A stretch of DNA of 40,542 bases, taken from Deltaproteobacteria bacterium (GTDB taxonomy: Bacteria; Desulfobacterota; BSN033; UBA1163). Made by a program: the position numbers and the translations under genes. Location: NCBI GenBank assembly GCA_037441725.1, contig JBBIRT010000004.1:9908-50449 (forward strand), read 5' to 3'. Below the pieces are notes generated by a model that did not search any database, was not told the origin of the DNA, and was given only the letters and a program-made list of their open reading frames with translations. Numbering within the stretch: the first letter of the stretch is position 1; every line of letters starts with the position of its first letter. Below are positions 4,553-36,114 of this stretch, piece after piece.

Positions 4553-7009
4553 ATGAACCCAATCTTTCGCCTTCCTCTTGTTCCCATCTTCATCGTTTAT
4601 ACCCTTGGGATTTCTTTTGGCTATTTAGAGATTCCCCTCTTTTCTCATGGATGGGTTCTCCTTCTACTCGGTTTAGGTTTTTGGCTTCTTTTCCTTTTTC
4701 TTAAGAGGACCCGAATAGGTTCTTGGATAGCCATTTTTACCTTCTTCTTTCTTGGTATTTATTCAATCCAGCTTTACCTTAATCCACCCAAGGTCCCTTC
4801 CCATGTTTCTTCTTTTATCGGTATAGATGGAATTTCTTTGGAAGGAATTATCGATCGTCCACCTGAGTCCCTACAGGGAAAGACGCGAATATTCCTCTGT
4901 TCAAAAAGGGTCATTCTCTCAAACCATTCCATTCCTGTAAATGGATGGGTCTTGATCTATCTCAATGATCCAAACCCTTCGCTTCACATTGGAGACCGAA
5001 TCCGGTGTGTTTGTAGGCTCGCTCGTCCTCATGGATTTCATAATTTAGGAGGATTTTCCTATGAACGCCACCTTGCTTTTGAACAGGTCTATAGTATTGG
5101 ATTCTTGTCTATAGAAAAGGGCTGGGTCAAATTGGGCGAGGGGTATAAAAATCCCTTTCTTCTCCAAGTAGAAGATTGGCGGGATCACATACGCACCTTC
5201 CTTGAGAGTGAGGCCCCTCCACTTTCTGCAGGGATTTTTAAGGCCCTTGTCTTAGGGGAACAAGGGGATATCCCGGAAGAGGTGAAAGAGCAATTCATCA
5301 TTACAGGGATTGCTCATCTTCTGGCCATTTCAGGGGATCATCTGGGAATCATAGCTCTGCTCTCCTTCTCCTTGATCCTCTGGATATTGAAACGTTCCAC
5401 CTCTCTCCTCCTCAGCATAGACGTGAAAAAATGGGCTGCCGGTCTAACCTTGCCCTGCCTTTTTCTCTATACCTTCATTGCTGGAGGAGGAATCTCTGTG
5501 ATCCGAGCAACGATCATGGTGATCCTCTTCTTCCTATCCATCCTCTTTAGCCAGGGAAGGAATCTTCTTTATACACTGATTCTTGCGGCCTTTCTCATCC
5601 TCCTTTTCTCTCCTCCTTCCCTCTTCGGGGTTTCTTTTCAACTTTCATTTGTCGCTGTGTTCTGTATCCTCGTTGGGGTGCCAAGACTTTTAAATTTCCT
5701 GAGGCAGAAGGAGACTTTTTCTTTTCCAAAAATCTCCTGGAGGGAAAAGATCATAAGGTATTTCGTAATCTCTTTCCTTGTTACAGGGGTGGCCATCCTG
5801 GGAACGGCTCCTTTTGTAGTCCTCCATTTTAATCGGATTTCCCTCATTGGATTCATCACCAATCTTTTTATCATTCCTTGGGTGGGTTTTATTATCGTTC
5901 CCATTGCCCTAGTCGCCTCATTGCTCTCCTTTTTTTTCCATCCCTTGGCTGCCCTATTAATTCATCTCAATCATGGAATCACCTTGATTCTCCTTCAGGT
6001 CATCCGGTACCTCTCTTCCATCCCCTATGCCTCCCTTTTTGTTCCCACTCCAACTGTTTTTGAGATGATTCTTTTTTACCTTATCGGCTTCCTCTTCTTT
6101 TGTCTCCAGAGGGAGAAAAGGGTCCGCTATCTCTTTATAGGACTTTGTATGGTCCTTCTCTTTGATTTCTTTTTCTGGAATTGGAAGGATTCATTTCAAA
6201 GGGACCTCCGAATCACTTTTATTGACGTCGGTCACGGAGATTCTATCCTGGTCGAGTTTCCAAAGGGGAAAAAAATGCTAATCGATGGAGGAGGCCTTTA
6301 TGATGATCCGTTCGATGTGGGAAAGAATGTGATTGCCCCCTTCTTATGGAAGAAGAAGATTCGACGGATTGATATCCTGGTACTTACCCACCCAGATCCT
6401 GATCATTTTAAAGGATTGCCATTCATCGCCTCTCACTTTTCAATTGGTCAGTTCTGGGATAATGGTTTTCAAGTCCCTTCCATGAACTATCATCGTCTAA
6501 AAAAAATTCTTGAGGAGAAAAAAATTGAAGTTGCTTCTCTTAATGAGGAAACCCCTCCCAAAATCATCAATGGAGTTGAACTCTCTTTTTTAAATCCACC
6601 CAACCCAGATCGGATGAAGAGGGGAGATCGAAATTTCTGTGATCTTAACAACTCCTCTTTGGTCATGAAACTAAGATTTAAAAGGGTTTCTATCCTTCTG
6701 ACTGGAGATATTCAGGAGGAGGCAGAGAATCGGATGTTGAGAAAGGGAAATTCTCTTCTGGCCAATATCCTAAAAGTTCCCCATCATGGAAGTTCTTCCT
6801 CGAGTTCTCTCCCCTTCTTAAAAGGGGTCCATCCCCATTTTGCAGTTCTGAGTGTGGGAGAGAGGAATATTGGAAATCTTCCCCATCCAGAAATATTAAA
6901 AAGGTATCAACAATTGGGCATTAAGGTTTTTAGAACGGATAAACATGGGTCTATTACCCTGATTACCAATGGAGAAGCGATCACGGTGAAGACATTTCTT
7001 AACCCGTAA
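4553..7009 (+). CDS. comEC: DNA internalization competence protein ComEC/Rec2
   Basis: Multi-TM protein with GIAHLLAISGDH competence motif, SFQLSF, and a C-terminal metallo-beta-lactamase domain (FIDVGHGDS, THPDPDH, KVPHHGS). Confidence 0.95.
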   Translation: MNPIFRLPLVPIFIVYTLGISFGYLEIPLFSHGWVLLLLGLGFWLLFLFLKRTRIGSWIAIFTFFFLGIYSIQLYLNPPKVPSHVSSFIGIDGISLEGIIDRPPESLQGKTRIFLCSKRVILSNHSIPVNGWVLIYLNDPNPSLHIGDRIRCVCRLARPHGFHNLGGFSYERHLAFEQVYSIGFLSIEKGWVKLGEGYKNPFLLQVEDWRDHIRTFLESEAPPLSAGIFKALVLGEQGDIPEEVKEQFIITGIAHLLAISGDHLGIIALLSFSLILWILKRSTSLLLSIDVKKWAAGLTLPCLFLYTFIAGGGISVIRATIMVILFFLSILFSQGRNLLYTLILAAFLILLFSPPSLFGVSFQLSFVAVFCILVGVPRLLNFLRQKETFSFPKISWREKIIRYFVISFLVTGVAILGTAPFVVLHFNRISLIGFITNLFIIPWVGFIIVPIALVASLLSFFFHPLAALLIHLNHGITLILLQVIRYLSSIPYASLFVPTPTVFEMILFYLIGFLFFCLQREKRVRYLFIGLCMVLLFDFFFWNWKDSFQRDLRITFIDVGHGDSILVEFPKGKKMLIDGGGLYDDPFDVGKNVIAPFLWKKKIRRIDILVLTHPDPDHFKGLPFIASHFSIGQFWDNGFQVPSMNYHRLKKILEEKKIEVASLNEETPPKIINGVELSFLNPPNPDRMKRGDRNFCDLNNSSLVMKLRFKRVSILLTGDIQEEAENRMLRKGNSLLANILKVPHHGSSSSSSLPFLKGVHPHFAVLSVGERNIGNLPHPEILKRYQQLGIKVFRTDKHGSITLITNGEAITVKTFLNP

Positions 7010-7135: not shown

Positions 7136-7621
7136 ATGGAACTAAAGGTAGAACGATTAGAAATACCAGAAGGATGCAACATCATAGTCGGTCAAACCCA
7201 TTTTATCAAGACGGTTGAGGATCTATATGAGATCATTGTTACGTCAGTTCCCCATGCCAAATTTGGGATCGGTTTCTGTGAGGCCTCTGGGGAATGCCTT
7301 ATTCGTATTGAAGGAAATGATGAGATGCTTAAGGAGGTGGCCAAGAAGAATGCCCTAAGCATTGGAGCAGGTCATACTTTTGTGGTGATCTTAAAAGAGG
7401 CCTTTCCAATCAATATCCTCAACGCAATCAAGATGTGTCAAGAGGTCTGCACGATCTTCTGTGCCACAGCCAATCCAGTTGAAGTGATCCTGGCCCAATC
7501 GGAGCAGGGAAGAGGAGTCCTCGGGGTCATTGACGGATTTCCTCCAAAAGGAGTTGAAAAGGAAGAAGGTGTGGTTTGGAGAAAAGAGCTATTAAGAAGA
7601 TTTAAGTATAAATTGGGTTAA
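7136..7621 (+). CDS. Adenosine-specific kinase family protein (DUF355 / PAE2307-like)
   Basis: NIIVGQTHFIKTVEDLYE, FCEASG, IFCATANP and GRGVLGVIDG family motifs; GGAGG RBS. Confidence 0.85.
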   Translation: MELKVERLEIPEGCNIIVGQTHFIKTVEDLYEIIVTSVPHAKFGIGFCEASGECLIRIEGNDEMLKEVAKKNALSIGAGHTFVVILKEAFPINILNAIKMCQEVCTIFCATANPVEVILAQSEQGRGVLGVIDGFPPKGVEKEEGVVWRKELLRRFKYKLG

Positions 7622-9769: not shown

Positions 9770-9824
9770 ATTCATCATTCGATTTTTCTTCCAGTTTTTG
9801 GTATAAATATTTTTGGGTGTAGAG

Positions 9825-11189
9825 ATGGAAAAGGCAAAGATCCTTGTGGTGGATGATGAAGCTCCCATATGCGAGATGATTAAAAGAGGTCTTTCTCATC
9901 TCGGGGAGTATGAGGTAGATATTGCTCATAATGGCTTCGAGGCGATCGAAAAGATTGAGAAAGAGGTCTTCGATTTGGTGTTGACAGATATAAAGATGCC
10001 TGAAATGGACGGACTCGAACTTTTAAAAAATATTAAAGGGACAAGGCCGGAGGTGATGGTAATCCTGATGACGGCTTACGGGTCGATTGAGATGGCTGTC
10101 GAAGCCATGAAGATCGGAGCAAACGACTTTATTACCAAACCCATTGACTTAAATGAACTTATGATCCATATTTCCAAGGCCCAAAAGGAGAGCCTTCTAA
10201 TCAGGGAGAATCGCCTTCTACGAATGGAGGTGAGAAAAAAATTTGAATTTAACAATATTATTGGGAAGAGTAAAAAGATGCAGGAAGTCTTTTCACTGAT
10301 TGAAAGGGTTGCTCCGGGAAACAGCACAGTGGTGATCTATGGTGGAAGCGGAACAGGCAAAGAGTTAGTTGCCAAGGCGATCCATTATAACAGTCCAAGG
10401 GCAGATCGGCCTTTTATCCCCTTTAATTGCGGGGCTATTCCTGAGACATTAGTTGAAAGTGAACTCTTTGGGCATACGAAAGGAGCTTTCACTGGCGCGG
10501 TCCAGGCTAAGAAAGGGCTGTTCGAAGAGGCTAATGGAGGGACTCTCTTTTTAGATGAGATCTCCACAATCCTCCCCTCAGTCCAGGTAAAACTTTTAAG
10601 GGTGCTTCAGGAAAAGGAATTGATGAAAGTGGGAAGTACGGAGAGAATAAAGATTGACGTCCGGATGATTGCCGCTACCAATGAGAATTTGGAAGAGAGT
10701 GTGAAGAATGGTAGATTTAGGGAAGATCTTTTCTATCGTCTTCATGTCTTTCCCATCTTTCTTCCTGAGCTCAAAGATCGGAAGGAGGATATCCCATTGC
10801 TTGCCTATCACTTCCTTGATCGGTATTCAAAGGAAGCACAAAAGGATATTAAAGGAATTTCAAAAAAGGCGATGAAACTCCTACTTGAATATGATTGGCC
10901 AGGATATGTCAGAGAATTTGAGTATGCCATCGAAAGGGCGGTCATCATGGCAGACCAGGACTATTTGATGCCTAATGACCTTCCGAGGGATCTGATTGAG
11001 GGGTTTTCAGGGTTGATTAAAAAAGGGGTTAGACATCGGAAGTCTCTTGAAGATATCAAATCTGAATATATTAGAGAAGTACTGAAAGAAGTTGGAGGAA
11101 ATAAGAAGGTTGCCTCAGAAATCTTAAAGGTGAACCCAAGAACCCTCTACCGTTTTGAGAAAAAGAGTCTCTCTAATGAATTATCATAA
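9825..11189 (+). CDS. Sigma54-dependent response regulator (NtrC/AtoC family)
   Basis: Receiver domain (ILVVDDE, DIKMP), AAA+ domain (GTGKE, GAFTGA, LFLDEI, FREDLFYRL) and Fis-type HTH. ATG at 9825 chosen over TTG at 9813. Confidence 0.95.
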   Translation: MEKAKILVVDDEAPICEMIKRGLSHLGEYEVDIAHNGFEAIEKIEKEVFDLVLTDIKMPEMDGLELLKNIKGTRPEVMVILMTAYGSIEMAVEAMKIGANDFITKPIDLNELMIHISKAQKESLLIRENRLLRMEVRKKFEFNNIIGKSKKMQEVFSLIERVAPGNSTVVIYGGSGTGKELVAKAIHYNSPRADRPFIPFNCGAIPETLVESELFGHTKGAFTGAVQAKKGLFEEANGGTLFLDEISTILPSVQVKLLRVLQEKELMKVGSTERIKIDVRMIAATNENLEESVKNGRFREDLFYRLHVFPIFLPELKDRKEDIPLLAYHFLDRYSKEAQKDIKGISKKAMKLLLEYDWPGYVREFEYAIERAVIMADQDYLMPNDLPRDLIEGFSGLIKKGVRHRKSLEDIKSEYIREVLKEVGGNKKVASEILKVNPRTLYRFEKKSLSNELS

Positions 11190-11999: not shown

Positions 12000-12767
12000 A
12001 TGAATCCTGAAGAGATTTCAAGAAAACAACTGGATAATCAGGAATTTTTCAAGCTTCGGCAGGTGACAGAGAAGATCAGCCATGTCTTAAGTAAACGACT
12101 GGCAAATCATTTGGATATTTTAAGGCCTCTCTTTATTCCAAGAAGGCTTTTAGGAACCTATGTAAAGAGTGCAGTAATGGAAGAGGTCCCAAGGTCTGAG
12201 AAGGCCTTTGCCGATCTCCAGGATCTTTTTGGAACCGTTTGTGAAAAACCTTTTGGACTCCCGAGGAAACTCCAACCCCCCCTTCCTCCTATTTCAAATC
12301 AATTAGAGATGACCCCCTTTCAATATCCCCTCCACATCATAGGATCAGGAGACAAGACCATTCACGTGACCTCTCCTACCCGATGGATTCTTTCCTATCG
12401 AAGCGAATGTTCAATCAACCGTTTAAAAGCAATGGTCTCTGGAACTGAACCACGTCAACCCGATGAAATGAGGCAGGCCCTGATCAATCATCTGTCCCTT
12501 GTTGTTCTACTCAGACATGTCCCCACCCTCACCCAGTTGCTTGAAGATCTACGTTATCAGGTCGAGATCAGAGAGCTTAAAGAGTTAGGAAATCTTCCTG
12601 TGGTGGTATTGAAATCACCCGTTCAAACCTTTCTCCCCCCAGACGATTTTATTCTTCAGGTAACACAACTTTCAGGGGTTCCAGCATTTCAGGAGATTAT
12701 TGATCTTGAGGCAGTTGAAAATATTTCAGATTCCCTCAAAGAGACTTTGAGAAGGCTTATCGATTAA
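12000..12767 (+). CDS. Hypothetical cytoplasmic protein convergent with the sheath-like gene
   Basis: 255-aa ORF with no signal peptide and no motif I can name. Confidence 0.7.
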   Translation: MNPEEISRKQLDNQEFFKLRQVTEKISHVLSKRLANHLDILRPLFIPRRLLGTYVKSAVMEEVPRSEKAFADLQDLFGTVCEKPFGLPRKLQPPLPPISNQLEMTPFQYPLHIIGSGDKTIHVTSPTRWILSYRSECSINRLKAMVSGTEPRQPDEMRQALINHLSLVVLLRHVPTLTQLLEDLRYQVEIRELKELGNLPVVVLKSPVQTFLPPDDFILQVTQLSGVPAFQEIIDLEAVENISDSLKETLRRLID

Positions 12768-12783: not shown

Positions 12784-14352
12784 TCACCAACTCAATTCAA
12801 ATTCTACCCGTTCTCCTGAATGTAAGATTTGATGGGAGGGTTCAACTGAGATTCTTATGGTGGCAGGTTGATTCGGTTTGGGTTGGGAAACCGAGATCTG
12901 GAATTCTTTCGGAGTGAGGTGACCTGACCTCTCCCAAAAGAGAGTAAAAGCCTTTCTTAAATTCGCCTCAAGGAGATCAGGGGCAAGATCTCGTTCGAGA
13001 TGATCCTTACACCAAAAAAGGAATTGAGCGATTCTGGAGAGAAAAAGTTGGTAACTCAAAGAACTGCCTGCAACATTGACTTCCAGAGGGATAAATGCTG
13101 AGTCCTTATTTGGAAAAGAAACCAATGGGATGATTCCTCCCCGGATCAATTGATCGATCCTATCATCACTCAAGAGGGTTTCTGTGGGGATATTTTCTTC
13201 CTTAATTGTATTGAGGGCTAGGTTCTCCAGTCGGATGGTTTGCCATTCGGTAAATCGAGTTGACCATCCTGTTTTATGAAAACTTTTCCCAATAAGACTT
13301 CCTATGGCCCAAACCGGACTTAGCCACAAATTTTCTGATTCCTCGAAGTAAATCCATTTAGGTTTATTGTCGGGACCATATGGATATCGGCTCAGAAATC
13401 GATTACAGGTTATAGCCATCCATCTTGCAGCAGGAGTCTTGCTCAAATGACGCCACTTAGCAAAGTTAGATTCCTCGAGAACGTGAGGGAGGTAGGCCAA
13501 TTTTTTTAGATCCTGCCAGGTATCGATATAGAAAAACTTAGGGGTGATCCAGCAAATGGATGGAACCATGAGGGTCTCTGAAAAATGGGCAATTTTCTCA
13601 AGAAGATCAAGACTTCTTGGACTATTATCAAATGGCAGGTCAATGAGGAGGAGAGAGGGAAGATTTTCAATCAAATCGACCGTGAGATGATCCAATGTCT
13701 CTTCAAGGGTGTCGAGGGAGGTAGGGACGATTTCAAGTTTTAGTTCTTCATCAGCTCCCCCTTCTTTGATGAAAAATCTCAGTCCTTGCCAGGTGGACTC
13801 CAGATTTCTAAATTCCTCATTGGAAAAGATGATTCTTAGGATTTGACGAAGGATTGAATCGATTTGAATCATAAAGGATTGGGTTTCCTCAGGAGAGGAT
13901 GAGTCTTCCTCTGGTACGGCAACCATCTTTAGGATGTCATCAATCACTCTCGAGGATGGAGAAGCTGTTTTTGGTTTGGAAGGTTCGTACATGATTTGAA
14001 ATGGGAAATCAGGCCATTCCTTGAGTCGATGATAAACCTCTTTTTCAGAAAGGCCTCCTTTTCTTGAATCTTCAACAAATCTCCTGGCCTCCAGGATGTT
14101 TTTAAGAAAAGGGGTCTCTTCCAGGAGACGATCAGGTTGAAAATCTTTCAACCGATGGAAATGAACGATTAATGAACCGGAGGGGCAAAGATGCTTGGGA
14201 ATGGAAATTTCGATCGACAATCCAAGGTCAACCATGATCTGATCGATGTTGCTTTTATCAACAGGAATGGGTGGATGGGACCAAGGGTTTGTGATTCGAG
14301 TGTTGAAAGGGGCCAAGGCTAAGACTTTGAAAGGCATAAAAGGAATCTGCAT
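12784..14352 (-). CDS. Contractile-sheath-like protein: apparent TssB(VipA)-TssC(VipB) fusion
   Basis: Residues ~1-95 resemble TssB (PFKVLALAPF, VDKSNIDQIM, FHRLKDFQPDRLLEETPFLKNILEARR). The rest resembles TssC (IDSILRQILRIIFSNEEFRNLESTWQGLRFFI, FAKWRHL, RFLSRYPYG, SFHKTGW, IPTETLLSD, GIIPLV, LSYQLFLSRIAQFL). GGAG RBS. Confidence 0.8.
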   Translation of the reverse strand: MQIPFMPFKVLALAPFNTRITNPWSHPPIPVDKSNIDQIMVDLGLSIEISIPKHLCPSGSLIVHFHRLKDFQPDRLLEETPFLKNILEARRFVEDSRKGGLSEKEVYHRLKEWPDFPFQIMYEPSKPKTASPSSRVIDDILKMVAVPEEDSSSPEETQSFMIQIDSILRQILRIIFSNEEFRNLESTWQGLRFFIKEGGADEELKLEIVPTSLDTLEETLDHLTVDLIENLPSLLLIDLPFDNSPRSLDLLEKIAHFSETLMVPSICWITPKFFYIDTWQDLKKLAYLPHVLEESNFAKWRHLSKTPAARWMAITCNRFLSRYPYGPDNKPKWIYFEESENLWLSPVWAIGSLIGKSFHKTGWSTRFTEWQTIRLENLALNTIKEENIPTETLLSDDRIDQLIRGGIIPLVSFPNKDSAFIPLEVNVAGSSLSYQLFLSRIAQFLFWCKDHLERDLAPDLLEANLRKAFTLFWERSGHLTPKEFQISVSQPKPNQPATIRISVEPSHQILHSGERVEFELSW

Positions 14353-14380
14353 CTTTAGACTCCTTTGAATTTGTATAAGG

Positions 14381-15268
14381 TTAGCGATCTATGATCTTTT
14401 TAAAAACCGACTTTAATCCCTTTGGCTCCTTCTCCTTCGAGTCCTCCTTGCGGACCTCCTTCTTGATTTCAGAGGATCTGACAAATTCTCCCATCGGAGC
14501 CTCTTGCACCTCAGCCAAACGGCCTTCGCCAAGGAAACGGAAGGTAGGCCCTCGAGGAGTTAAAGCAATTTCATCATTGGGCTTGAGGGAGGCCTGGACA
14601 ACGATTGGGACTCGATTGATCTGGACTAACCTCTGACCTGTCAGGTCTTTTATCCAGTATTGATTCTGGAAGAAAAAGATCTGCGCCTGCTGATCAAAAA
14701 GGGCAGGATGATCAATGATAAAATCGCATTTTAATCCTTTCCCAATGGTCACGGGGAGTTCTTTATAAGACCGAAGGGTAGGGCCATATTGGATCACCAG
14801 GGGAGCCTTTACCGGTTGGACTGCAACTTCTTGCGTCTCTACTCTTATGGGTTCAACCTGTAGGGGTTTTTCTACAGGGGGTCTTTTAGGCTCTCCCTTA
14901 GGGGTTTCGGGTTTTAAGGGTGTAATCACTTCCTCTTCTTTGACTTCTTTTACCTCGGTTAAGAAACTGACCTTAGGACCTCCTTCTGAAAATTCGAGAA
15001 CATCACCGTTTTTTAAGTAGATTTCCTTTACCCTCTTTCCATTGACAAAGGTGCCATTGGTGCTATGATCAATTAATTTGAATTGATTTCCCTCCCGTGT
15101 TATTTCGGCATGTTTTCGAGAAATACTGGTGAGGTTGGGAGGGAAATGGAGATGGCAGGTTGGATGGCGACCGATCGAAATGATCGGATCGGTAAATTCT
15201 TGGATTTCTCCTTTCATCGGTCCAAGAATATGAACAAGCTGAATAACAATGACAGGTGGGCGTCTCAT
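14381..15268 (-). CDS. Double-FHA-domain protein
   Basis: FHA1 has canonical IGR, ISRKHA and STNGTFVNG motifs; Pro/Lys/Glu-rich linker; degenerate second FHA (TIGKG...IKDL...QIN). Start set to ATG 15268 because the ORF-track start (15499) overlaps the divergent phosphatase. Confidence 0.85.
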   Translation of the reverse strand: MRRPPVIVIQLVHILGPMKGEIQEFTDPIISIGRHPTCHLHFPPNLTSISRKHAEITREGNQFKLIDHSTNGTFVNGKRVKEIYLKNGDVLEFSEGGPKVSFLTEVKEVKEEEVITPLKPETPKGEPKRPPVEKPLQVEPIRVETQEVAVQPVKAPLVIQYGPTLRSYKELPVTIGKGLKCDFIIDHPALFDQQAQIFFFQNQYWIKDLTGQRLVQINRVPIVVQASLKPNDEIALTPRGPTFRFLGEGRLAEVQEAPMGEFVRSSEIKKEVRKEDSKEKEPKGLKSVFKKIIDR

Positions 15269-15281
15269 TTTTCTGATCTTA

Positions 15282-15347
15282 ATTATACCTAAAAGTTCTT
15301 CTGGGTCAAGAAAATAATTGCTCAATGAGGGATGATTTTTGTATAAT
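15282..15347. promoter_or_regulatory. Back-to-back sigma70-type promoters between the FHA and PP2C genes
   Basis: Minus strand: TTGACC (15309-15304), 16-bp spacer, TATAAT (15287-15282). Plus strand: TTGCTC (15318-15323), 18-bp spacer, TATAAT (15342-15347). Confidence 0.6.
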
Positions 15348-15352
15348 AAGCC

Positions 15353-16087
15353 ATGTTCAAAATTATCTCTTATGGTAAAACTGATCCGGGTCTGAAACGA
15401 ACCAATAATGAAGATGCCTTTATTGTAAAACCCGAGATGAATCTTTTTGTTGTGGCCGATGGCATGGGCGGAGCGGCGGCAGGAGAAGTGGCCAGTCAAT
15501 TCTTTGTCGAAACGACGTTACAGATTTTCTCCAAACCCCATGGAGAATCCGAACAAGAGATCCTAAGATTGGTTCAAGAATCCTTCAGCCAGGCCAACGA
15601 AAGGATTCTTAGGCATTCCATCGAGAATCCTCATCACCAGGGAATGGGATGTACCGCAGAACTTATGGCCTTTTCTCACCAGCATTATGTTTTGGGCCAT
15701 GTGGGGGATAGTCGTAGCTATCTCTATCGAAAAGGACAATTGAGGCAGATGACGCATGATCACTCTTTGATTCAAGAACAGGTGGATCAGGGGATGATTA
15801 CACCCGATGAAGCAAAGAGGCATTCCCTTCGGAACATTATTCTCAGGGCAGTAGGTACCCAAGAAACCCTTGCTGTTGATCTGATTCGAGGGAAGGCTCA
15901 ATTAGGAGATCTCTTTCTTCTTTGTTCGGATGGTTTAACCGATATGATCGATGATCTCTTGATTCAGGAAGTCCTCTCTTTGCCATTGAATCTTATTCAA
16001 AAAGGAGAGAAGCTCATCCAGTTAGCCAAATCCAAAGGGGGTTTTGATAATATTACGGTCATCTTGTGTGAGATCATTTCTTTATGA
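15353..16087 (+). CDS. PP2C/PPM-family Ser/Thr phosphatase (Stp1/PppA-like)
   Basis: RTNNEDA, VADGMGG, GMGCT, HVGDSR, DHS, LCSDGL and GGFDNITV motifs. Confidence 0.95.
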   Translation: MFKIISYGKTDPGLKRTNNEDAFIVKPEMNLFVVADGMGGAAAGEVASQFFVETTLQIFSKPHGESEQEILRLVQESFSQANERILRHSIENPHHQGMGCTAELMAFSHQHYVLGHVGDSRSYLYRKGQLRQMTHDHSLIQEQVDQGMITPDEAKRHSLRNIILRAVGTQETLAVDLIRGKAQLGDLFLLCSDGLTDMIDDLLIQEVLSLPLNLIQKGEKLIQLAKSKGGFDNITVILCEIISL

Positions 16088-17019
16088 AAAAAGCCAATGC
16101 CTTTTCATTGCTTATCGCTTCTATTCTCCTAATCCTCTCTTCACTCTTTGCAGAAGAGGGAGGGGTTTCAAGGCTCTATCCTTTACCTATGATTGAGGTA
16201 GAATGGGTGGTGATGGATTGGTTGATTCACTCCGGATTTGAAGTTTCAAAGATCCCTATAGAAGGTGACCAGATTTTATTGTTGGGAAAGAAGGAAAGTG
16301 AAAAGTGGGAGCTCATTTTGAAACCTCATTCTCCCCTTGCTTCCATCCTGCAGATCAAATATACAGTGAGTGGAGGTCCTCATCGAGAGAAACTTCAGGA
16401 ATTATGGAGCCACCTTGAAAGATATTCTCATGGTCCCCCTATTGAACAGGAAACTTTAGCTCAAGAAATCCCATCAAAGGTTTCTTCCCAGAGTGCCTCA
16501 GTCGTCTGTATTAAAGCCAAATTGGATCAAGGAGAGATTCAGTTTTCAGGTTTCGTCATTGATCCCCAGGGATTCATCATTTCTACGGCTCATGATCTCA
16601 AGTCTCCTCAAGAGATATTGGTCACCCTCCATGATGGGCAAAGGTTTAAGGGAGAGATCGTTAAGAATGATTCCCATAGAGATTTGGTCTTAATTCACAT
16701 TCCCTCTGCTCTTCATTCCTTTATTCCGATAAAAGGAAAAAGATTCCTGAAAGATGGAGAAAAGGTATATATGATCGGTTATCCAAATGGTCACCAAGGA
16801 GTCATTCACTCAGGCCTGATTGATGGTTCCCTCCGGTGGGTCGGTCTTCTCCCTTTATGGAAGGTGAAAATGGAGACCCTACCTGGAAGCAGTGGCAGCC
16901 CTGTGTTTGACGCCAAGGGAAATCTGGTGGCCATGGTGAAGGGAAGACTCCGAGGGAGCGATACGGTAGGTTTTTTGATCCCTTTAGAGACCATCCTTGA
17001 ATTTTTAAAGGAGAAATAG
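16084..17019 (+). CDS. Secreted trypsin-like serine protease with an N-terminal unknown domain, no PDZ
   Basis: Signal peptide; catalytic triad motifs TAH, RDL and PGSSGSP; start overlaps the phosphatase stop (ATGA). Confidence 0.85.
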   Translation: MKKANAFSLLIASILLILSSLFAEEGGVSRLYPLPMIEVEWVVMDWLIHSGFEVSKIPIEGDQILLLGKKESEKWELILKPHSPLASILQIKYTVSGGPHREKLQELWSHLERYSHGPPIEQETLAQEIPSKVSSQSASVVCIKAKLDQGEIQFSGFVIDPQGFIISTAHDLKSPQEILVTLHDGQRFKGEIVKNDSHRDLVLIHIPSALHSFIPIKGKRFLKDGEKVYMIGYPNGHQGVIHSGLIDGSLRWVGLLPLWKVKMETLPGSSGSPVFDAKGNLVAMVKGRLRGSDTVGFLIPLETILEFLKEK

Positions 17020-17021
17020 TC

Positions 17022-18215
17022 ATGATGACTTATGGTCGTTATCAGATTATAGAGGAATTAGGGAAAGGGTCAATGGGGATTGTGTATAAGGCCCATGATC
17101 CTCAAATTGATCGACTGGTGGCCTTAAAAGTTCTCCGCCAAGATCGACTGACCAGTGATGATTTTATCCATCGATTCCTAAAAGAGGCTAAGGCCATTGG
17201 CAGGCTTTCCCATCCCCATATTGTGACGGTCTACGATGTAGGAGAGGATCACGGGACGATCTATATCGCCATGGAGTTCTTAGAAGGAAGACCCTTAAAT
17301 CAGGTGATGGGAGAAAGAAGGTTAGGTCTCAGGGAAATCATTGAAATAGGAATTCAGGCAGCCGAAACTCTCGATCATGCCCATCAGAAAGGGATTGTTC
17401 ATAGGGATGTCAAGCCCAGCAATATTCTCCTTCAAACCTCTGGGCAGATTAAGATCACAGATTTTGGTATTGCCCATATTGAAGATCCCTCTGCTTCTGT
17501 CCAAACCCAAGCAGGTGAGATCCTTGGTACCCCTGCCTATATGTCCCCCGAACAGGTGATGAGCCGTCCGGTGGATGGTCGTTCTGATCTATTCTCTTTG
17601 GGGATCATCTTATATGAGCTGGCGACTGGCAAGAGGCCATTTGGGGGTGAAAACCTGGCAGCCATCTTTAACTCTATTACACAGGAGATTCCATCCCCAC
17701 CTGTAAGGATTAATCCAGAAATCCCTTTAGAGTTCTCACAGATCATCCTAAAGTGTTTGAATAAAAAACAGGAAGAACGTTTTCAATCAGGGAAAACATT
17801 GGCAGAAGCTTTGAAGACCACCCTTCAGAAAATGGAGCCAGTGGCCGTTGAAACAGAGGCATCAAAGAGATCGAAAAACATGTTTTTATTCATCATCGGG
17901 ATCATTCTTCTCTTAGGGATTGGAGGGATACTCTCTTACCTTTACATCCTTCCAAAGGAGAGGGTTCCAGTGCAAAATGAAATTATCAAAACAGGAGCTC
18001 TTCATGTGGAAAGCAACCCAGCAGGAGCTCAGGTTTTTATCGATGGCACATTTAAAGGGAAGGCACCCATCAAATTGGAGCTTTCAGCAGGAAAGCATGA
18101 AGTTCGATTAACTCTTCCGAATCATTTTGACTGGGAGGCCCAGGTAGACCTCAAAGAGAATGAGGAAACCCCTTTATTGATCCATTTGTTTCCAGAGACT
18201 GATGAAAAACCTTAA
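17022..18215 (+). CDS. Hanks-type Ser/Thr protein kinase with TM helix and extracytoplasmic PEGA domain
   Basis: GKGSMG, VALK, HRDVKPSN, DFGIA, GTPAYMSPE; hydrophobic TM segment; PEGA-like LHVESNPAGAQVFIDG...G.HEVRL. Confidence 0.93.
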   Translation: MMTYGRYQIIEELGKGSMGIVYKAHDPQIDRLVALKVLRQDRLTSDDFIHRFLKEAKAIGRLSHPHIVTVYDVGEDHGTIYIAMEFLEGRPLNQVMGERRLGLREIIEIGIQAAETLDHAHQKGIVHRDVKPSNILLQTSGQIKITDFGIAHIEDPSASVQTQAGEILGTPAYMSPEQVMSRPVDGRSDLFSLGIILYELATGKRPFGGENLAAIFNSITQEIPSPPVRINPEIPLEFSQIILKCLNKKQEERFQSGKTLAEALKTTLQKMEPVAVETEASKRSKNMFLFIIGIILLLGIGGILSYLYILPKERVPVQNEIIKTGALHVESNPAGAQVFIDGTFKGKAPIKLELSAGKHEVRLTLPNHFDWEAQVDLKENEETPLLIHLFPETDEKP

Positions 18216-18234
18216 ATTAGAGGGAGGGATAAAC

Positions 18235-20190
18235 ATGGTTAAATTCATTCAACATTCTATTCTTTTAATTCTCACGGGAATTTTCTTTCTATTTGCTGGG
18301 AATAGCGTCCAAGCCCAGATCTCTTCAGGACAGATGGCTCCAATATTTTCTTTAAAAGATTTTAAGGGTCAAACCTATGATCTGTCTCAGATGAGAGAAC
18401 AACCTATGCTCATCCTCTACTTTTTTGATGTAGAATCAAGACCGAGTCAGGAGGGGCTATTGAGCCTCAATCAATTGATGAGGCAATATAAGGGGGCCAA
18501 TTTCATTGTATGGGCCATTACACTTTCTCCCAAGGAAAAAGTCACAAAATTCATTGAAGCCTCTGGTATCACTTTTCCTGTTCTTCTGGATCTGAGTAAA
18601 GTCAGCGATCTTTATCAGGCAAGGCAGATATTACCCACTGTTTGCACCCTTGGCCCCGGGCTTAAGGTTTTAGATTACTTTCAGGGGGGAGGGAAGACCA
18701 CTGAGACCATGCTGATAAGACTTGCAGAAAGGCAACTCCAGAGAAAGCAGACCCAATTGGCCAAAGCGATCAGTGAGGAGGTGTCCAAAAAGAATCCTCA
18801 AAACATCAAGGCCAAGACCATTAAAGGCTATGCGGCGTTAAAAGAGGATCGTCTGAGTGAAGCGGAGGAGGTGTTTAAAGAAGTTTCAAGGAAAGGTGGG
18901 GAGGGGGAGGTTTTGGGAAAAGAAGGGTTGGCCTCGGTCTATGCCAAGAAGGGACAAACAGATAAAGCCCTTCAGCTCGCGAAAGAGGTAGAAGAAAAAT
19001 CTCCAGATCGGGCATACATTCATGTGATTAAAGGGGATGCCCTTTATGCTCAGGATAAAAAGAAGGAGGCAGAAGAAGAGTATCAAAAGGCGGTTCAGAA
19101 AAAGATTGCTGAACCTTACCAGGAGGCTCAACGGTATAATCAGCTTGGTCGTCTTTATGCCAGTTCAGGGAAATATCAAAAGGCCCGAGAGCTTTATGAT
19201 CAAGCCTTAACGATAGATCCTTATTATATTGAGGGAACAACTAATAAAGGAATCACTTATGAGAAGGAAGGCCATTGGGATAAGGCCCTGGAGGCTTACC
19301 GACAAGCTTTGGCTCTGGATAAAGGAGATACGTTTGCTGCAATCCTGGCCAAAAAGGCAGAGGAGATGTTAGAGATTCAAAAGGATATCAAGCGCAAGGA
19401 GAGAATCGATCAATTAATTAAAGAGCTGGCTGCCCGATATCAGGGACAAAAGAAGGAAGAGGCTAAAAAGGCAGCAGATACCTGGACCTCTCCACCGATG
19501 ATCCTAACCTTTGTTGATTTTCAAGAGAAAGGGGGCCTCAACGAGAGGGATGGTTTCTCAACGGTCCTTATGTCACAATTGGCTGACCACCTTAATGCAT
19601 CTGGAAGGGTCAAGGTGGTTGAGAGGGTTTTGATTGAGAGACTTCTTGAGGAGTTGAATCTTGGTTCATCAGAGCTTGCCAATCCAGAAACTGCCCTAAA
19701 ATTAGGAAAAGTATTAGCCGCCAGATTGATTGGGACAGGCTCTCTCTATTATCTTCCCCAAGGAACACTTTTAAACCTTAGGCTCATCGATACAGAGACC
19801 TCAGCCATTCCTCAAGTGATGACCCGTCAGATTTCTCCTCAAGGCTCTCTCGAAAAGGAGCTATTTCATTTGAATCGGGAGATCCTGAGAACCATCGTTA
19901 AAAAATATCCTCTCCATGGGTATGTGGTCAAGACAATGGATGATCAGGTGATGCTCAATATCGGGTCAAAGCAAGGAGTCGTTTCCGGGACAAGGTTTGA
20001 AGTCATTGAGGACCAGGCTCCAGTCACTTATAAAGGAAAGTCCCTTCAGTCTTCTCTCAAAATCATTGCCCAATTGGAAGTGGTACAGGTGGAGCCGGAT
20101 CTCTGCTATGCAAAGGTTCTTAATAAAGAGAGATCTTTAAAAACCGATGACAAGGTACAAGAAAAGATGGAGGAGATATCCCTGAAATGA
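18235..20190 (+). CDS. Exported multidomain protein: redoxin-like (no CxxC) + TPR repeats + CsgG/TolB-N-like domain + FlgT-C-like beta domain
   Basis: Signal peptide; GQMAPIFSLKD...FPVLLD redoxin fold; TPR helices (YNQLGRLY...YDQALTIDP); VVER...EELNLG...LGKVLAAR; VMLNIGSKQGV..GTRFEV. Start 18235 follows a GGAGGG RBS. Confidence 0.75.
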   Translation: MVKFIQHSILLILTGIFFLFAGNSVQAQISSGQMAPIFSLKDFKGQTYDLSQMREQPMLILYFFDVESRPSQEGLLSLNQLMRQYKGANFIVWAITLSPKEKVTKFIEASGITFPVLLDLSKVSDLYQARQILPTVCTLGPGLKVLDYFQGGGKTTETMLIRLAERQLQRKQTQLAKAISEEVSKKNPQNIKAKTIKGYAALKEDRLSEAEEVFKEVSRKGGEGEVLGKEGLASVYAKKGQTDKALQLAKEVEEKSPDRAYIHVIKGDALYAQDKKKEAEEEYQKAVQKKIAEPYQEAQRYNQLGRLYASSGKYQKARELYDQALTIDPYYIEGTTNKGITYEKEGHWDKALEAYRQALALDKGDTFAAILAKKAEEMLEIQKDIKRKERIDQLIKELAARYQGQKKEEAKKAADTWTSPPMILTFVDFQEKGGLNERDGFSTVLMSQLADHLNASGRVKVVERVLIERLLEELNLGSSELANPETALKLGKVLAARLIGTGSLYYLPQGTLLNLRLIDTETSAIPQVMTRQISPQGSLEKELFHLNREILRTIVKKYPLHGYVVKTMDDQVMLNIGSKQGVVSGTRFEVIEDQAPVTYKGKSLQSSLKIIAQLEVVQVEPDLCYAKVLNKERSLKTDDKVQEKMEEISLK

Positions 20191-20693
20191 AACGGCAAAG
20201 GAGAAGTCCTATCTTTCTTAAAATTCTTATTCTCACTCCAATCCTTCTCTTTTGGGTTTCTTGCACCTCAACACCCGAATTGAAAGGGAGAAGCCTAACC
20301 ATTGCGGTTTGGGATTTAGATGATCTAAGCCCTTCCTCATTGGTTAGGCCCTCATTGGGGGAGATCTTATCGGGTGAGATTATTGAAACCCTGAAGAGGA
20401 AAGGAGAATATACAGTAGTTGAGAGAGAACGTCTACTCTTAGCCCTCGAGGAGCTCCGTCTTGGGACGACCAAGCTTGTCGATGAGGAGACCCGTCTCAA
20501 GCTCGGTAAAATGTTAGGGGCTCGATTCATGATATTTGGGGGTTACCAAATCATTGGAGATCAGGTGCGTGTTGACCTAAGAATGGTGGAAGTAGAAACT
20601 GGAAAGGTGAGAAAGGCTGTTGAGAAGATCACCTCTGCCACAGATTTGCAAGGATGGATCATCGCTGTTCAAAAGGCAGCAGAGGCGTTTTAA
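20187..20693 (+). CDS. CsgG/HfaB-like lipoprotein
   Basis: Basic N-terminus, hydrophobic stretch and WVSC lipobox-like site; TIAVWDL, VVERERL..ALEELRLG, LGKMLGA and LRMVEVETG motifs. Confidence 0.75.
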   Translation: MKRQRRSPIFLKILILTPILLFWVSCTSTPELKGRSLTIAVWDLDDLSPSSLVRPSLGEILSGEIIETLKRKGEYTVVERERLLLALEELRLGTTKLVDEETRLKLGKMLGARFMIFGGYQIIGDQVRVDLRMVEVETGKVRKAVEKITSATDLQGWIIAVQKAAEAF

Positions 20694-20700
20694 TCTATTT

Positions 20701-21957
20701 CTAAAATCTGCTGGTTAAAAGCAGTCCTCCAGAGAATCCTTTATAGTGGCGTTCACTGAAGTTTTGGGAACTGATGAGATAGGGGTAACTTCTTTGTCCA
20801 TCATGCATGATAAAACCTTTAAAATAGATCTCTCCGTTAAGGGAGGGGAGGATTTTTCGAGTTGCTCCAAAACCGAGGGAATATCTTTCCCTGCGGCCCT
20901 GATGATTTTGTGAGAAGGAAGGGTAATCATTGGAGGTAATGAAGAGAGTCTGAAAGATAGATTTAATGGTTGTTTTTTCGTCAAAAAGATATTTCAAAGC
21001 GAATTCACCCACCCATTCATCTCCATGACTATTCTTTCTCTCCGTGATAAGGATAGGAAGGCTGTATAATTCGACATACCATCCATATCCTGGATAATAA
21101 GACCAATCCTCTCTATAGTCATATTTGTTTTTTTCCCTAAAAATTCCTTTCAGGGAGAGATCAAAATCCCATTTTTTTCTATTGTAATTTAGTCCCAGAC
21201 CAATGAGCCAGAGTTCGCCTTCTTTTAAGGTATGTCGATACAACTCATTCGTTCCCCAAATGTCTCGATTGGATTCTTTCCATTTTGACCCTTTATAATA
21301 AGCGTAATTGCCAAAGATGCGACACCGCCAGGGAGGGAAGATATCATAATGAATCTCTGCGGTTAAACTGAAGATATCCCCTGGGGAATAATCCTTAATC
21401 TGAATGGTTGAATAATATTCTTCTGTTAAATATCCAAAATCGAATTTTCCTCGCCAGAGATAGCCTGCTCCCAGACCCAAAACCCCTCTCCTCCATTCCT
21501 TGGCCAGGGAGAGAGTGGGGTTGATATTGAAGCCCTCCCCAAAGGTGTTGATTGAAATCAAGTAAGGATCCATTATGAGAATTTGATCTTTAGCCTTCAG
21601 GTTGGTTTTTCCGGTAGGAAGATTAAGATCAAGTCCTATAAGGAAATCGATGGGAAGTTTCCCAATGATTTCATAAGCGAGATTGACTTTGGAATCGAGA
21701 ACATGACCGAGTGATCGATCCGATCCTGTATAGGGATCCTTATGAGTATAAGCATACCCAGTGAGCAAACCCAAAGAGAAATCTTTGTATTGGGCCTCCA
21801 GTGAGAGAGGGAGATAGGATTGCCTTGCCTTATTCCCTTTAGTATCTTCCCACCAGTCGAAATTTATTCCTGAATGCACTTTAAAATCGATGGCCCAAAC
21901 CCTCTCCATCGAAATCATCAGTGTAAGGGATGTTAAAATCCAAATCCATTTTTTCAT
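20701..21957 (-). CDS. Putative outer-membrane beta-barrel protein (paralog B)
   Basis: Signal peptide, aromatic-rich amphipathic strands, LNLPTGK motif, C-terminal Phe (GLLLTSRF); paralog of 22940-24169. Confidence 0.72.
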   Translation of the reverse strand: MKKWIWILTSLTLMISMERVWAIDFKVHSGINFDWWEDTKGNKARQSYLPLSLEAQYKDFSLGLLTGYAYTHKDPYTGSDRSLGHVLDSKVNLAYEIIGKLPIDFLIGLDLNLPTGKTNLKAKDQILIMDPYLISINTFGEGFNINPTLSLAKEWRRGVLGLGAGYLWRGKFDFGYLTEEYYSTIQIKDYSPGDIFSLTAEIHYDIFPPWRCRIFGNYAYYKGSKWKESNRDIWGTNELYRHTLKEGELWLIGLGLNYNRKKWDFDLSLKGIFREKNKYDYREDWSYYPGYGWYVELYSLPILITERKNSHGDEWVGEFALKYLFDEKTTIKSIFQTLFITSNDYPSFSQNHQGRRERYSLGFGATRKILPSLNGEIYFKGFIMHDGQRSYPYLISSQNFSERHYKGFSGGLLLTSRF

Positions 21958-22005
21958 AAAGATTCTTCCTCAATCATCGTTATTAATTATTTAGATTACC
22001 ATTCA

Positions 22006-22902
22006 TCATCGTTGAATTTTTGATGGTTGACGGTCTGGTGTTAGGGTCCTTTTTGTCGCATCTTCTGGAGCCAATTGGTCTGTAAGCGATGTTCTCTCCT
22101 TGATGGAGCGGAGCACCGACCGGCTTCTCCCTCTTCCTGCCAAAAGACCGAGTGTATATAATTCCTCTAAGGCCCCTCTTGCCACACAAATCCTTGGATC
22201 CTCCCTTAATGCCTTTTCATAATATTCGGCAGCTTTTTCATAGTTTCCTTGATCGCTCGCATCGATCCCCATGAATAAGGCCATTAAAGCTTTGTGATTG
22301 GTTGAACACGGCCTCCTTAATTCTTCATTTTCCATTGGGGTGGGCTCAATCTTAAAAAATTTAATCATCTCAAAGAGAAGGTCTTTTTCAATTTTAAATA
22401 AATCTTCCATCTCCCCTTTTACCATGGGTTGAGCAATCATTTTTTGTGTTCCGACATCCAGAAGGTTTGCCTGAATCAAAATTGAACCCTCTTTGATCTA
22501 TCCTCCGATTATCAAACGAGCCCCTAAAAGCCTTCCCACTCTTGGAGTGGTTTGAGAATCAACCATTCCAGAGGCCCCCAATCCCATCTCTTCAACCAGA
22601 GCTTGGATTCTAATTCTCTCCACCACTTGAAGTTCTCTGATTTTAAAAAGATCTGTCAAGAGCATTAAAGCCAAGCCTTTCTGAAGGGGAATGAATTCTG
22701 ATCTTCCTGTTTTATTTTCGAAATAGAGAACGGCAACCGTATTTCTTGCCTCCACAGGGCGAAGGGCCTTTTCTTCTTTTAGTACTTTTTGGGCCCACAT
22801 TCTAACATCGGAAGTGACCACCTCCCCAGCCCAAGTTGTGCCCATCATCAGAAAAAAGGCCAGACAGAAACTCCATGCTTTCAAGATCATCCTGTTTCTC
22901 AT
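22006..22902 (-). pseudogene. CsgG-like + TPR exported protein interrupted by one in-frame TAG (nonsense mutation, sequencing error or readthrough)
   Basis: ORFs 22498-22926 and 22006-22479 share a frame: ...LGARLIIGG-TAG-IKEGSILIQANLLD... Joined, they align along the whole intact paralog 24258-25175. Start uncertain (ATG 22902 chosen). Confidence 0.75.
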
Positions 22903-22939
22903 CCCTCTTTCCCTATAAATAGACAATATTTAACAATCT

Positions 22940-24169: not shown

Positions 24170-24257
24170 CTTAAATGGACCTCTCTTCATTGGTATGAGA
24201 GAAAAAAATGATTCCCTAAATAAATCCTGTTATGCCCTCCCATCCATGAAATATGCC

Positions 24258-33000: not shown

Positions 33001-33036
33001 AGAGAAGCCTCCTGGTCTTATTCAATTCTATTTCCC

Positions 33037-34311: not shown

Positions 34312-34375
34312 TACCTAACTCCTCTGTATATTTGCGGCAGGTTAAAGGATTTCAATGACGTTTTTATTTCTAATT

Positions 34376-35836: not shown

Positions 35837-35876
35837 CCGCAACCCCCGACAGGATTTTAAAAGGAGACTTAGATTC

Positions 35877-36103
35877 GTAATGCTTCACTCATTCGTGGAA
35901 TTAGGCAGGGATCTCGGAGAAAATTTTATAGCGGAAACCTCAGCTTGCCCCATAACTCCAGAATTCCTTATACATTTGAAGGCTGTCATGAGTTGGATGA
36001 AATGACTTTTACCCACCCCTTTTTGAAGTGCTCCGCTTTATAAAATTTTCGGAGATATCCCTGCCTGATCCTAACAGGGTTCCCCACTTCAGTGATGCAT
36101 TAC
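35877..36103 (-). mobile_element. 227-bp MITE-like element, copy 3 (inverted relative to copies 1 and 2)
   Basis: Ends GTAATGCTTCAC...GTGATGCATTAC. Perfect 8-bp direct repeat TTAGATTC at 35869-35876 and 36104-36111. Confidence 0.9.
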
Positions 36104-36114
36104 TTAGATTCTTA

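Follow-up and report, generated by a model that had tools for sequence, protein, structure and literature searches.

The fusion gene and its product

The DNA considered here, called the window, is a stretch of 40,542 nucleotides (nt) from a Deltaproteobacteria bacterium (GTDB lineage Bacteria; Desulfobacterota; BSN033; UBA1163; GenBank assembly GCA_037441725.1, contig JBBIRT010000004.1, positions 9,908 to 50,449 of the forward strand). On its minus strand lies a gene for a fused type VI secretion system (T6SS) sheath protein, in which a TssB-like and a TssC-like part follow each other in one polypeptide of 522 amino acids (aa). A reading made from the letters alone (the sequence-only reading) had proposed such a single-polypeptide fusion, and this was borne out by Pfam, where T6SS_VipA matched N-terminally and VipB thereafter, both above their gathering cut-offs. 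Every TssB and TssC motif that it had listed is present in the translation, and the protein is, as it had remarked, shorter than a typical TssB plus TssC, the canonical proteins of the phylum measuring 172 and 498 aa. The family of ~520-aa fused TssB-TssC proteins is called class 1 here, which is this report's own label. The gene and the parts of its product are as follows.

12784..14352, minus strand: class 1 fusion gene (fused TssB-TssC sheath paralogue), 522 aa, ATG start, uninterrupted frame
14360..14365, minus strand: Shine-Dalgarno sequence AAGGAG, 7 nt ahead of the fusion ATG, seen by sequence inspection
14020..14352, minus strand: TssB-like part, residues 1-111, beginning at the equivalent of TssB residue ~31
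13879..14019, minus strand: linker, residues 112-158, ~50 residues, predicted disordered, with Ser/Thr-rich flanks
13912..13944, minus strand: short helix motif in the linker, residues 137-147, from column conservation
13078..13878, minus strand: TssC core (VipB N-terminal domain), residues 159-425, from PF05943 and hhalign
12787..13077, minus strand: compact C-terminal domain, residues 426-522, likened to the gp25-like VipB_2 domain through the VIA alignment

From the ATG to the upstream in-frame stop there are 12 codons, the whole open frame amounting to 534 aa. The fusion is a genuine gene and an assembly artefact is excluded, because more than 100 relatives of ~520 aa have the same architecture and independent contigs show no insertion or deletion (indel) within the open reading frame (ORF). 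In contigs from three public runs the ORF differs by substitutions only; the runs X2 and X3, which may be a single data set, each contribute a contig of 32,484 bases that shows 33 substitutions and no gap, and the sole indel in the public-run contigs is an inserted T at 14380, which is intergenic.

Sheath profiles and predicted fold

The VipA profile (PF05591, T6SS_VipA) aligned with residues 7-95 of the fusion at 36.1 bits (cut-off 24; E-value 7e-9; profile positions 27-122 of 155), and the VipB profile (PF05943) scored 139.9 bits (cut-off 27; E-value 1e-40), its best stretch being residues 234-420. The corresponding NCBIfam equivalogs were matched far below their cut-offs (TIGR03358, 34 versus 97.25; TIGR03355, 127 versus 271.5). 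When a profile built from 33 homologues was compared with solved structures, TssB chains were recovered through 5urw_1A (E-value 3.7e-12, query residues 4-94 aligned with TssB 28-124) and TssC chains through 5n8n_B (E-value 1e-35, query residues 154-421).

An AF2 model of the fusion, computed from the 33-row alignment, reached a predicted local distance difference test score (pLDDT) of 87.7 and a predicted template-modelling score (pTM) of 0.87, and is confident apart from residues 126-157 (pLDDT <50). Foldseek ranked T6SS TssC chains at the top (5n8n_B, E-value 2e-20; 3j9g, template-modelling score 0.70), and VIA-align superimposed residues 153-513 of the model on TssC chains over ~355 residues with Z about 30 and a root-mean-square deviation (rmsd) of about 3 Å. 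The sequence-only reading had pointed to phage and pyocin sheaths, which use one protein of related fold, and the predicted topology mirrors these: the model, from residue 1 or 5 to 512, aligned with single-chain phage, pyocin and extracellular contractile injection system (eCIS) sheaths (8kee_C, 9gtp_3e, 3j9q_A and others) at Z 20-24 and rmsd 3.2-3.6 Å. Because of this end-to-end alignment, the fusion, as modelled, recreates the single-chain sheath topology.

The likeness and its limits can be set out for both kinds of sheath. With canonical TssB/TssC (VipA/VipB; 3J9G, 5MXN, 5URW, 5N8N) the fusion shares the two Pfam families, their order and the core fold, and it appears to retain a C-terminal strand and a TssC-type N-terminal helix motif. 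It differs in being one polypeptide that is about 150 residues shorter, with TssB 1-30, the TssB C-terminus and TssC 1-71 missing or replaced by the linker; it has no PF18945 match, stays below the equivalog cut-offs and forms its own deep clade. Canonical pairs are clustered with hcp, tssE/F/G and clpV, whereas the fusion in the window is encoded away from tube and baseplate genes. In the single-chain sheaths of R-type pyocins, myophages and eCIS (3J9Q, 8KEE, 6RBN) the N-terminal part corresponds to TssB and the remainder to TssC, as in the fusion; however, identity is 8-14%, the fusion derives from within the T6SS TssB/TssC lineage, and there is no adjacent tube gene in its window. The alignment with the pyocin sheath starts at pyocin residue 23, which is model residue 6, the fusion being without the N-terminal arm.

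Anatomy: one linker arm missing, one apparently kept

In a T6SS sheath, according to passages of PMC5813253, two β-strand linkers, one formed by the N-terminus of VipA and the other by the C-terminus of VipB, tie each subunit to two subunits in the adjacent ring on the baseplate side, and TssE is thought to accept the linkers of the first ring. Domain boundaries in the fusion were set by hhalign against the 172-aa TssB and the 498-aa TssC of the phylum. Residue 2 of the fusion was aligned with TssB 31 and residue 108 with TssB 144, which leaves no counterpart for the inter-ring linker, i.e., the first ~30 residues of TssB; this linker is absent in all 33 fusion homologues, with at most 16 residues upstream of the conserved start, and distant class 1 members from six further genomes begin at the same position. 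The N-terminal arm is judged to be missing because hhalign, the profile comparison with solved chains, the start supported by a Shine-Dalgarno sequence and the 33 homologues all agree. The handshake strands, on whose presence the sequence-only reading had let its case depend, are therefore half there: the TssB N-terminal linker strand is missing family-wide and the C-terminal strand appears to be kept.

The linker of the fusion stands in for the TssB C-terminus together with TssC residues 1-71, and the TssC core resumes at residue 159, the equivalent of TssC 72 (fusion 159-466 corresponding to TssC 72-427 in hhalign). Within the linker lies the short helix, where L141 is invariant and I140, V144 and P147 are at least 90% conserved among the 33 homologues. 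At residues ~20-30, canonical TssC of the phylum has the motif SLL[DE]xI[IV], and PMC5048182 describes, in the part consulted, that TssC's N-terminal helix, which is this region in the systems studied, binds the N-domain of ClpV and is believed to become accessible only once contraction has taken place. By its position and pattern the linker helix resembles this ClpV-binding helix, to which it may be equivalent.

The compact C-terminal domain could be followed in the VIA alignment to model residue 513, which is VipB 477. PF18945 (VipB_2) did not match the fusion at E-values up to 10, whereas it scores ~150 bits in canonical TssC of the phylum. The protein ends in a conserved strand with invariant E517 and W522 that lines up by eye with the canonical TssC C-terminus, and this terminal strand appears to correspond to the TssC C-terminal linker. 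In total, 48 columns are invariant among the 33 fusion sequences.

The class 1 family and other fusions

A word-indexed search returned 264 relatives, of which the best 120 are nearly all 509-537 aa long with both Pfam domains and 47-99% identity. An exhaustive search of 50%-identity representatives gave 157 proteins at E-values up to 1e-30. In the list of the best 150, the first ~110 consist mostly of full-length proteins about 500-550 aa long, with identities falling to ~27%. The relatives from the word-indexed search belong to Syntrophaceae, Desulfobacteraceae, Syntrophobacteria and further Thermodesulfobacteriota metagenome-assembled genomes; one relative, WP_015336766.1, is from the cultured Maridesulfovibrio hydrothermalis AM13. 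Their source names are "type VI secretion system contractile sheath large subunit", ImpC or "hypothetical", just as the sequence-only reading had expected when it wrote that such fusions may already be annotated as TssC-like. In a quick tree, all 22 sampled class 1 rows stand alone on one side of a long branch with a Shimodaira-Hasegawa-like approximate likelihood ratio test (SH-aLRT) support of 100. Judged from these sequences, class 1 appears to be an old and constrained family.

Two further fusion architectures were found. Class 2 (512-524 aa; L026:9337-10911, L028:10260-11798 and L029:9392-10960) occurs in the genomes G316, G220 and G338 and, by search hits, in G209 and G390; it keeps the N-terminal strand and an SLLDQI-type motif, ends after the VipB N-domain without the C-terminal gp25-like domain, and lies between clpV and vgrG, only in the canonical T6SS lineage other than that of the class 1 carriers. 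In the tree its sequences group inside canonical TssC, though weakly supported (82). Class 3 (P0240-P0270; 612-645 aa, one of them from Candidatus Poribacteria) has a nearly complete VipA and VipB, two of the eight proteins scanned also giving a weak match to VipB_2, and is placed on the quick tree between class 1 and the rest. The three architectures mean that evolution has undone the TssB/TssC split on several occasions. In the outer recycling domain the C-terminal end of TssB would meet the N-terminal end of TssC, which would ease fusion topologically. A description of a natural TssB-TssC fusion was not found in the open literature, including the term-searched parts of the T6SS reviews PMC10433429 (2023) and PMC13584744 (2026, on accessory factors). 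The fusion is thus already TssC-like in databases and was not found in print, and it is no new type of machine.

Association with the canonical T6SS

The genome that carries the window has a canonical T6SS on other contigs, with TssC, two Hcp and TssF on C193, TssK on C150 and C101, and TssA on C150. A separate TssB was not found in this genome, and the absence is probably due to an assembly gap, because the TssC gene is cut by the start of its contig. The wider distribution was followed across 401 sampled genomes of the phylum, in which canonical TssC was called by a PF05943 score above 370 bits or, in G006, from a partial copy. By this measure 44 of the 401 genomes have canonical TssC. The class 1 fusion is present in 20, though the copy in G233 runs off the end of its contig and that in G156 is truncated and has a stop codon; canonical TssC was found in 18 of these 20 carriers and in 26 of the 381 non-carriers.

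The two exceptions have different backgrounds. In G156 only the truncated copy is present, its customary neighbours are missing and the genome gave no T6SS hit; the remnant is a C-terminal class 1 fragment of 289 aa (L035:9341-10210). G348 is 99% complete, and the fusion there follows TssE-F-G-ClpV, with no canonical TssB/TssC or TssA found. This case is explained by an assembly gap, because the contig starts 216 nt before tssE, exactly where the syntenic cluster of G116 has tssA-tssB-tssC. In a tree of canonical TssC (45 sequences from 43 genomes, G006 being left out as partial), there are two clearly separated lineages, and all 18 carriers belong to the same one, where they make up 18 of 32 rows, versus 0 of 12 in the other.

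The surroundings of the fusion vary among the 20 carriers. An FHA gene lies directly upstream on the same strand in 12, and also at the loci L006 and L007 and at a remnant in G316, where a 97-aa class 1 N-terminal fragment ending in a stop stands behind the FHA gene (L084:12088-12381). Four carriers (G001, G271, G206, G041) have the fusion beside islands of VgrG, DUF2169-pentapeptide, DUF3540 and PAAR-like genes, two (G348, G116) directly after tssE-tssF-tssG-clpV, and the remaining contexts are the contig end in G233 and the truncated remnant in G156. The idea that the fusion replaces TssA was rejected, since ImpA_N is found in 43 of the 401 genomes, including 17 of the 20 carriers (none in G156, G212 and G348).

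These data bear on whether the fusion could form a sheath of its own. The sequence-only reading had considered a self-sufficient protomer, and a separate machine with a single-chain sheath would be in line with the topology shared with phage and pyocin sheaths and, seemingly, with G348, a nearly complete genome in which the fusion stands after TssE-F-G-ClpV and canonical TssB/TssC and TssA were not found. However, the N-terminal linker arm is absent, the window holds no tube, spike or baseplate gene, and canonical TssC accompanies the fusion in nearly all carriers; the gap accounts for G348, and the copy in G156 is broken by a stop. A self-sufficient protomer is therefore not upheld, and a separate machine of this kind is very improbable. 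The comparison with engineered sheaths leads the same way. Lengthening the VipA linker by at least two residues abolished contraction (as reported in sections of PMC5797969), and in such a mutant the VipB linker alone holds the subunits to the preceding ring (per passages of PMC5813253). In VipA-N2/N3 the N-terminal linker no longer reaches the preceding ring, and the sheaths assemble and cannot contract (both sources, same parts); these are laboratory insertions in a complete two-chain sheath, whereas in the fusion the linker is naturally absent and wild-type subunits coexist. The fusion could accept linkers and donate one, and it is unlikely to build a normal contractile sheath alone, because its N-terminal linker is missing and the VipA mutants fail to contract.

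That the fusion is a decaying, functionless duplicate of tssBC could be suspected from its scores under the NCBIfam equivalog cut-offs, its patchy distribution and the truncated copies in G156 and G316. Against such decay stand the uniform length of ~520 aa in more than 100 clusters down to ~30% identity, the 48 invariant columns, the confident fold, the frame that is intact in independent assemblies and the strong Shine-Dalgarno sequence, which together make it hardly credible.

The neighbouring FHA and kinase module

An FHA gene and, 28 nt behind it, the fusion gene probably form an operon of two genes, and the operon diverges from a set of genes for a phosphatase, a protease, a kinase and envelope proteins. 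Among the 33 larger ORFs of the window that were scanned by Pfam, no T6SS core gene (tube, baseplate, spike) was found. The neighbours that matter here are listed below.

14381..15268, minus strand: FHA gene, two FHA domains (Pfam FHA, 2 stretches) and a basic C-terminal tail, 295 aa
15282..15309, minus strand: sigma-70-like promoter match (TTGACC, 16 nt, TATAAT) upstream of the FHA gene, within the divergent intergenic region, 11 of 12 consensus positions, a consensus match only
15353..16087, plus strand: PP2C-type Ser/Thr phosphatase (PP2C_2; NF033484, 252.9 bits, cut-off 230), divergent from the FHA-fusion operon
16084..17019, plus strand: trypsin-like (HtrA-like) serine protease (Pfam Trypsin_2)
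17022..18215, plus strand: Hanks-type Ser/Thr kinase with a C-terminal PEGA domain (Pfam Pkinase and PEGA)
18202..20190, plus strand: AhpC/TSA-TPR-CsgG/LpoB-like envelope protein, 662 aa (Pfam)
20187..20693, plus strand: CsgG/LpoB-like lipoprotein, 168 aa, the last gene of the conserved module (Pfam, synteny)

For the FHA gene, alignment with nine orthologues indicates the ATG at 15268 as the true start codon. The mechanically called ORF (14381-15499) used a TTG at 15499 and overlapped the start of the PP2C gene, and the corrected start leaves a divergent promoter region of 84 nt. Its product scored below the cut-off of TIGR03354 TagH (64.3 versus 120.25). A complex prediction of the fusion with the FHA protein, made with no controls, gave no verdict (score 0.00, mark 0.32) and bears neither for nor against binding.

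The 662-aa protein was used to follow the module in the genome sample. Full-length orthologues were found in 18 genomes, all 18 with canonical TssC by PF05943, and 7 of the 18 have no intact class 1 gene; the FHA/PP2C/kinase module is present without the fusion in G310, G390 and G284. Because all 18 orthologue genomes are T6SS-positive and seven of them lack an intact class 1 gene, the kinase module is itself T6SS-linked and independent of the fusion, which the FHA operon carries as an optional passenger.

It might be argued from this neighbourhood that the fusion is an effector of a Ser/Thr-kinase envelope-stress module that acts in the cytoplasm independently of any T6SS, as a sheath-derived scaffold or polymer, e.g., in envelope repair or cell division. 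Its strongest local linkage is indeed to FHA, PP2C, kinase, protease and CsgG/TPR lipoprotein genes and not to T6SS genes, and G260 has its FHA-fusion pair within a few kb of ftsZ/ftsA, from which other genes separate it. Yet in the sample both the fusion (18/20) and the 662-aa module protein (18/18) are found in T6SS-positive genomes, other class 1 members lie within T6SS clusters or by VgrG islands, and the copy is truncated in G156, the sole carrier in which no T6SS hit was obtained, so that such an effector is improbable. The arrangement in G260 (L022 13749-16299, with a radical-SAM gene between the pair and ftsZ/ftsA) is probably coincidental.

The module calls to mind a known route of T6SS control. 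The T6SS of Pseudomonas aeruginosa is governed by a threonine-phosphorylation pathway with the kinase PpkA, the phosphatase PppA, Fha1/TagH and the sensors TagQRST. The neighbours of the fusion likewise include a Hanks kinase together with a PP2C phosphatase, an FHA protein and lipoproteins of the envelope; they differ in having two FHA domains, a PEGA kinase and TPR/CsgG-like sensors, and we know of no pathway in which a sheath-like protein is co-transcribed with Fha. The P. aeruginosa pathway is also remarked upon in a section of 10.1101/2021.02.25.432843.

Several other features of the window were noted. The long conserved envelope module spans 15353-25175 and includes, beyond the genes listed, several lipoproteins of the CsgG/LpoB-like and TPR kinds, an unknown protein of 418 aa and a MipA-like putative outer-membrane protein of 416 aa. 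On the other side, the gene of a conserved 255-aa protein (12000-12767, plus strand) runs towards the fusion gene, the two stop codons being 16 nt apart; it adjoins the fusion at L005, L006, L009, L024, L032 and L034 and lies ~7 kb off at L022. The 255-aa protein had no Pfam, NCBIfam or PADLOC match and no usable Atlas match, and its AF2 model, from six sequences, was poor (pLDDT 40.5). A sigma-54-dependent response regulator (9813-11189, plus strand) lies 1.6 kb beyond this other side of the cluster, and a sigma-54 activator is near the fusion in G001 too (L016:12966-14549); a scan for the sigma-54 promoter pattern gave 13 matches versus 12.98 expected and hence no support for sigma-54 control. 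A reading of the cluster as a defence system was dropped, since the PADLOC scan gave generic kinase, protease and phosphatase domains and a 19-bit BrxC match for the fusion. The remaining window (4553-7009, 7136-7621, 27650-29509 and 31315-38237) is ordinary metabolism and transport, with ComEC, an adenosine-specific kinase, an aldehyde:ferredoxin oxidoreductase, FAD/FeS oxidoreductases, a fumarate-reductase-like flavoprotein and parts of an Opp-type ABC transporter.

A proposed accessory sheath paralogue

The reading that is favoured here, with about even odds (a probability of roughly 0.5), is that the class 1 fusion is an accessory single-chain sheath paralogue that works beside canonical TssB/TssC and modulates their sheath through a specialised ring or end unit. 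The sequence-only reading had offered a regulatory or capping variant of the sheath as its other possibility, and this is the direction in which the evidence points, the exact role of the protein being inferred. The fusion would sit within or at the end of the canonical sheath, where it would accept linker strands from canonical subunits and donate its one C-terminal linker. The second, N-terminal connection, which work on mutants showed to be needed for contraction, would be impossible for it, and a ring or end unit of this kind might tune the nucleation, stability or firing of the sheath. In this lineage its production, and perhaps its activity, may be coupled to the FHA protein and to the envelope-sensing module of Ser/Thr kinase and PP2C phosphatase, in a manner possibly analogous to the PpkA-PppA-Fha pathway.

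To our knowledge, no T6SS has been described with a second, fused sheath protein. In AFP/PVC, one sheath paralogue forms only the baseplate-proximal ring. More generally, passages of PMC8894135 and PMC5813253 describe extra handshake-bearing proteins that start or end sheaths, such as the initiator gp25/TssE and the cap and cap adaptor of AlgoCIS, as well as the several sheath proteins of AFP/PVC; for eCIS, the former source (in the same part) speaks of several sheath proteins and of handshake mimicry in initiation and capping. Unlike the fusion, these position-specific paralogues and mimics belong to extracellular or phage systems or are small gp25-like proteins.

A number of points weigh against an accessory sheath subunit. 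Polymerisation of the fusion, its entry into the sheath and its binding to T6SS parts are predictions from sequence and model. The sampled genomes are related, so that the co-occurrence counts (18 of 20 carriers versus 26 of 381 non-carriers) overstate independence and show an association, not a statistic, and the trees of the fusion family and of canonical TssC are both quick searches with SH-aLRT support only. Even within its own T6SS lineage the fusion is patchy, requiring at least seven changes on the tree, four of them forced by starred branches; it is dispensable and has been repeatedly lost or gained. The FHA/kinase module occurs in T6SS-positive genomes that have no fusion (G310, G390, G284, G338, G209); the module is independent of the fusion, which need not be its target. 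An invariant Thr in the linker was looked for in the homologue columns and none was found. Finally, the net positive charge of the canonical helix SR[FL]AHY[LI]K is lost from the helix aligned to it in the fusions, where it averages +0.3 (31 of 33 matched) versus +3.0 in canonical TssC (36 of 45 matched). One of the two C-terminal sheath helices is the tube-attachment helix (10.1101/108233), and if, as is possible, it is this one that lost its charge, a weakened contact with the tube would speak against ordinary incorporation.

The main rival is that the fusion never enters the lattice and acts as a non-polymerising regulator, adaptor or decoy whose sheath fold is just a platform for binding, its exposed linker helix recruiting or titrating ClpV, or the protein bridging the FHA protein to ClpV, TssA or the baseplate; in this way it would control how the T6SS assembles or disassembles. 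This is a possible explanation, if on the unlikely side, and the lost charge leans towards it, as does the loss of one linker arm. A conserved helix in a linker that is predicted to be disordered would be permanently exposed, and the putatively equivalent helix of canonical TssC is the one that binds the ClpV N-domain (in the consulted part of PMC5048182); moreover, the fusion gene follows clpV directly in G348 and G116 and is probably co-transcribed with the FHA gene. On the other hand, the core fold, the acceptor domain and the C-terminal strand with E517 and W522 are strictly conserved, which exceeds what a scaffold for the display of a peptide would need.

Significance

The nucleation of the T6SS sheath, the maintenance of its extended state and its triggering are only partly understood, and the helpers known to us, TssA, TagA, TagB and TagJ, are unrelated to the sheath itself. 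A conserved and widespread paralogue that naturally lacks the linker required for contraction would offer a natural handle on nucleation and triggering, and its probable co-transcription with the FHA protein of a T6SS-linked kinase module a second handle on the same question. The cultured carrier, Maridesulfovibrio hydrothermalis AM13, makes the idea of an accessory sheath testable. The fusions also bear on how the two-chain T6SS sheath relates to the single-chain sheaths of phages, and the database labels that present them as an ordinary large sheath subunit can mislead the automatic counting of T6SS.

A bolder and doubtful extension would be that the T6SS of Desulfobacterota control their firing by truncated, fused sheath paralogues that each keep half of the handshake. 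Class 1, with no N-terminal linker and with the acceptor domain and the C-terminal linker, might then make up one ring, from which the canonical sheath is seeded or by which it is uncoupled from its trigger at the baseplate, i.e., a phospho-regulated safety catch or nucleator set by the FHA/kinase/phosphatase sensor, and class 2, with the N-terminal linker and no C-terminal acceptor domain, might terminate polymerisation. If this were true, half-handshake paralogues would represent a new principle by which the start, the stop and the contraction of a sheath are controlled, built from the sheath subunits themselves.

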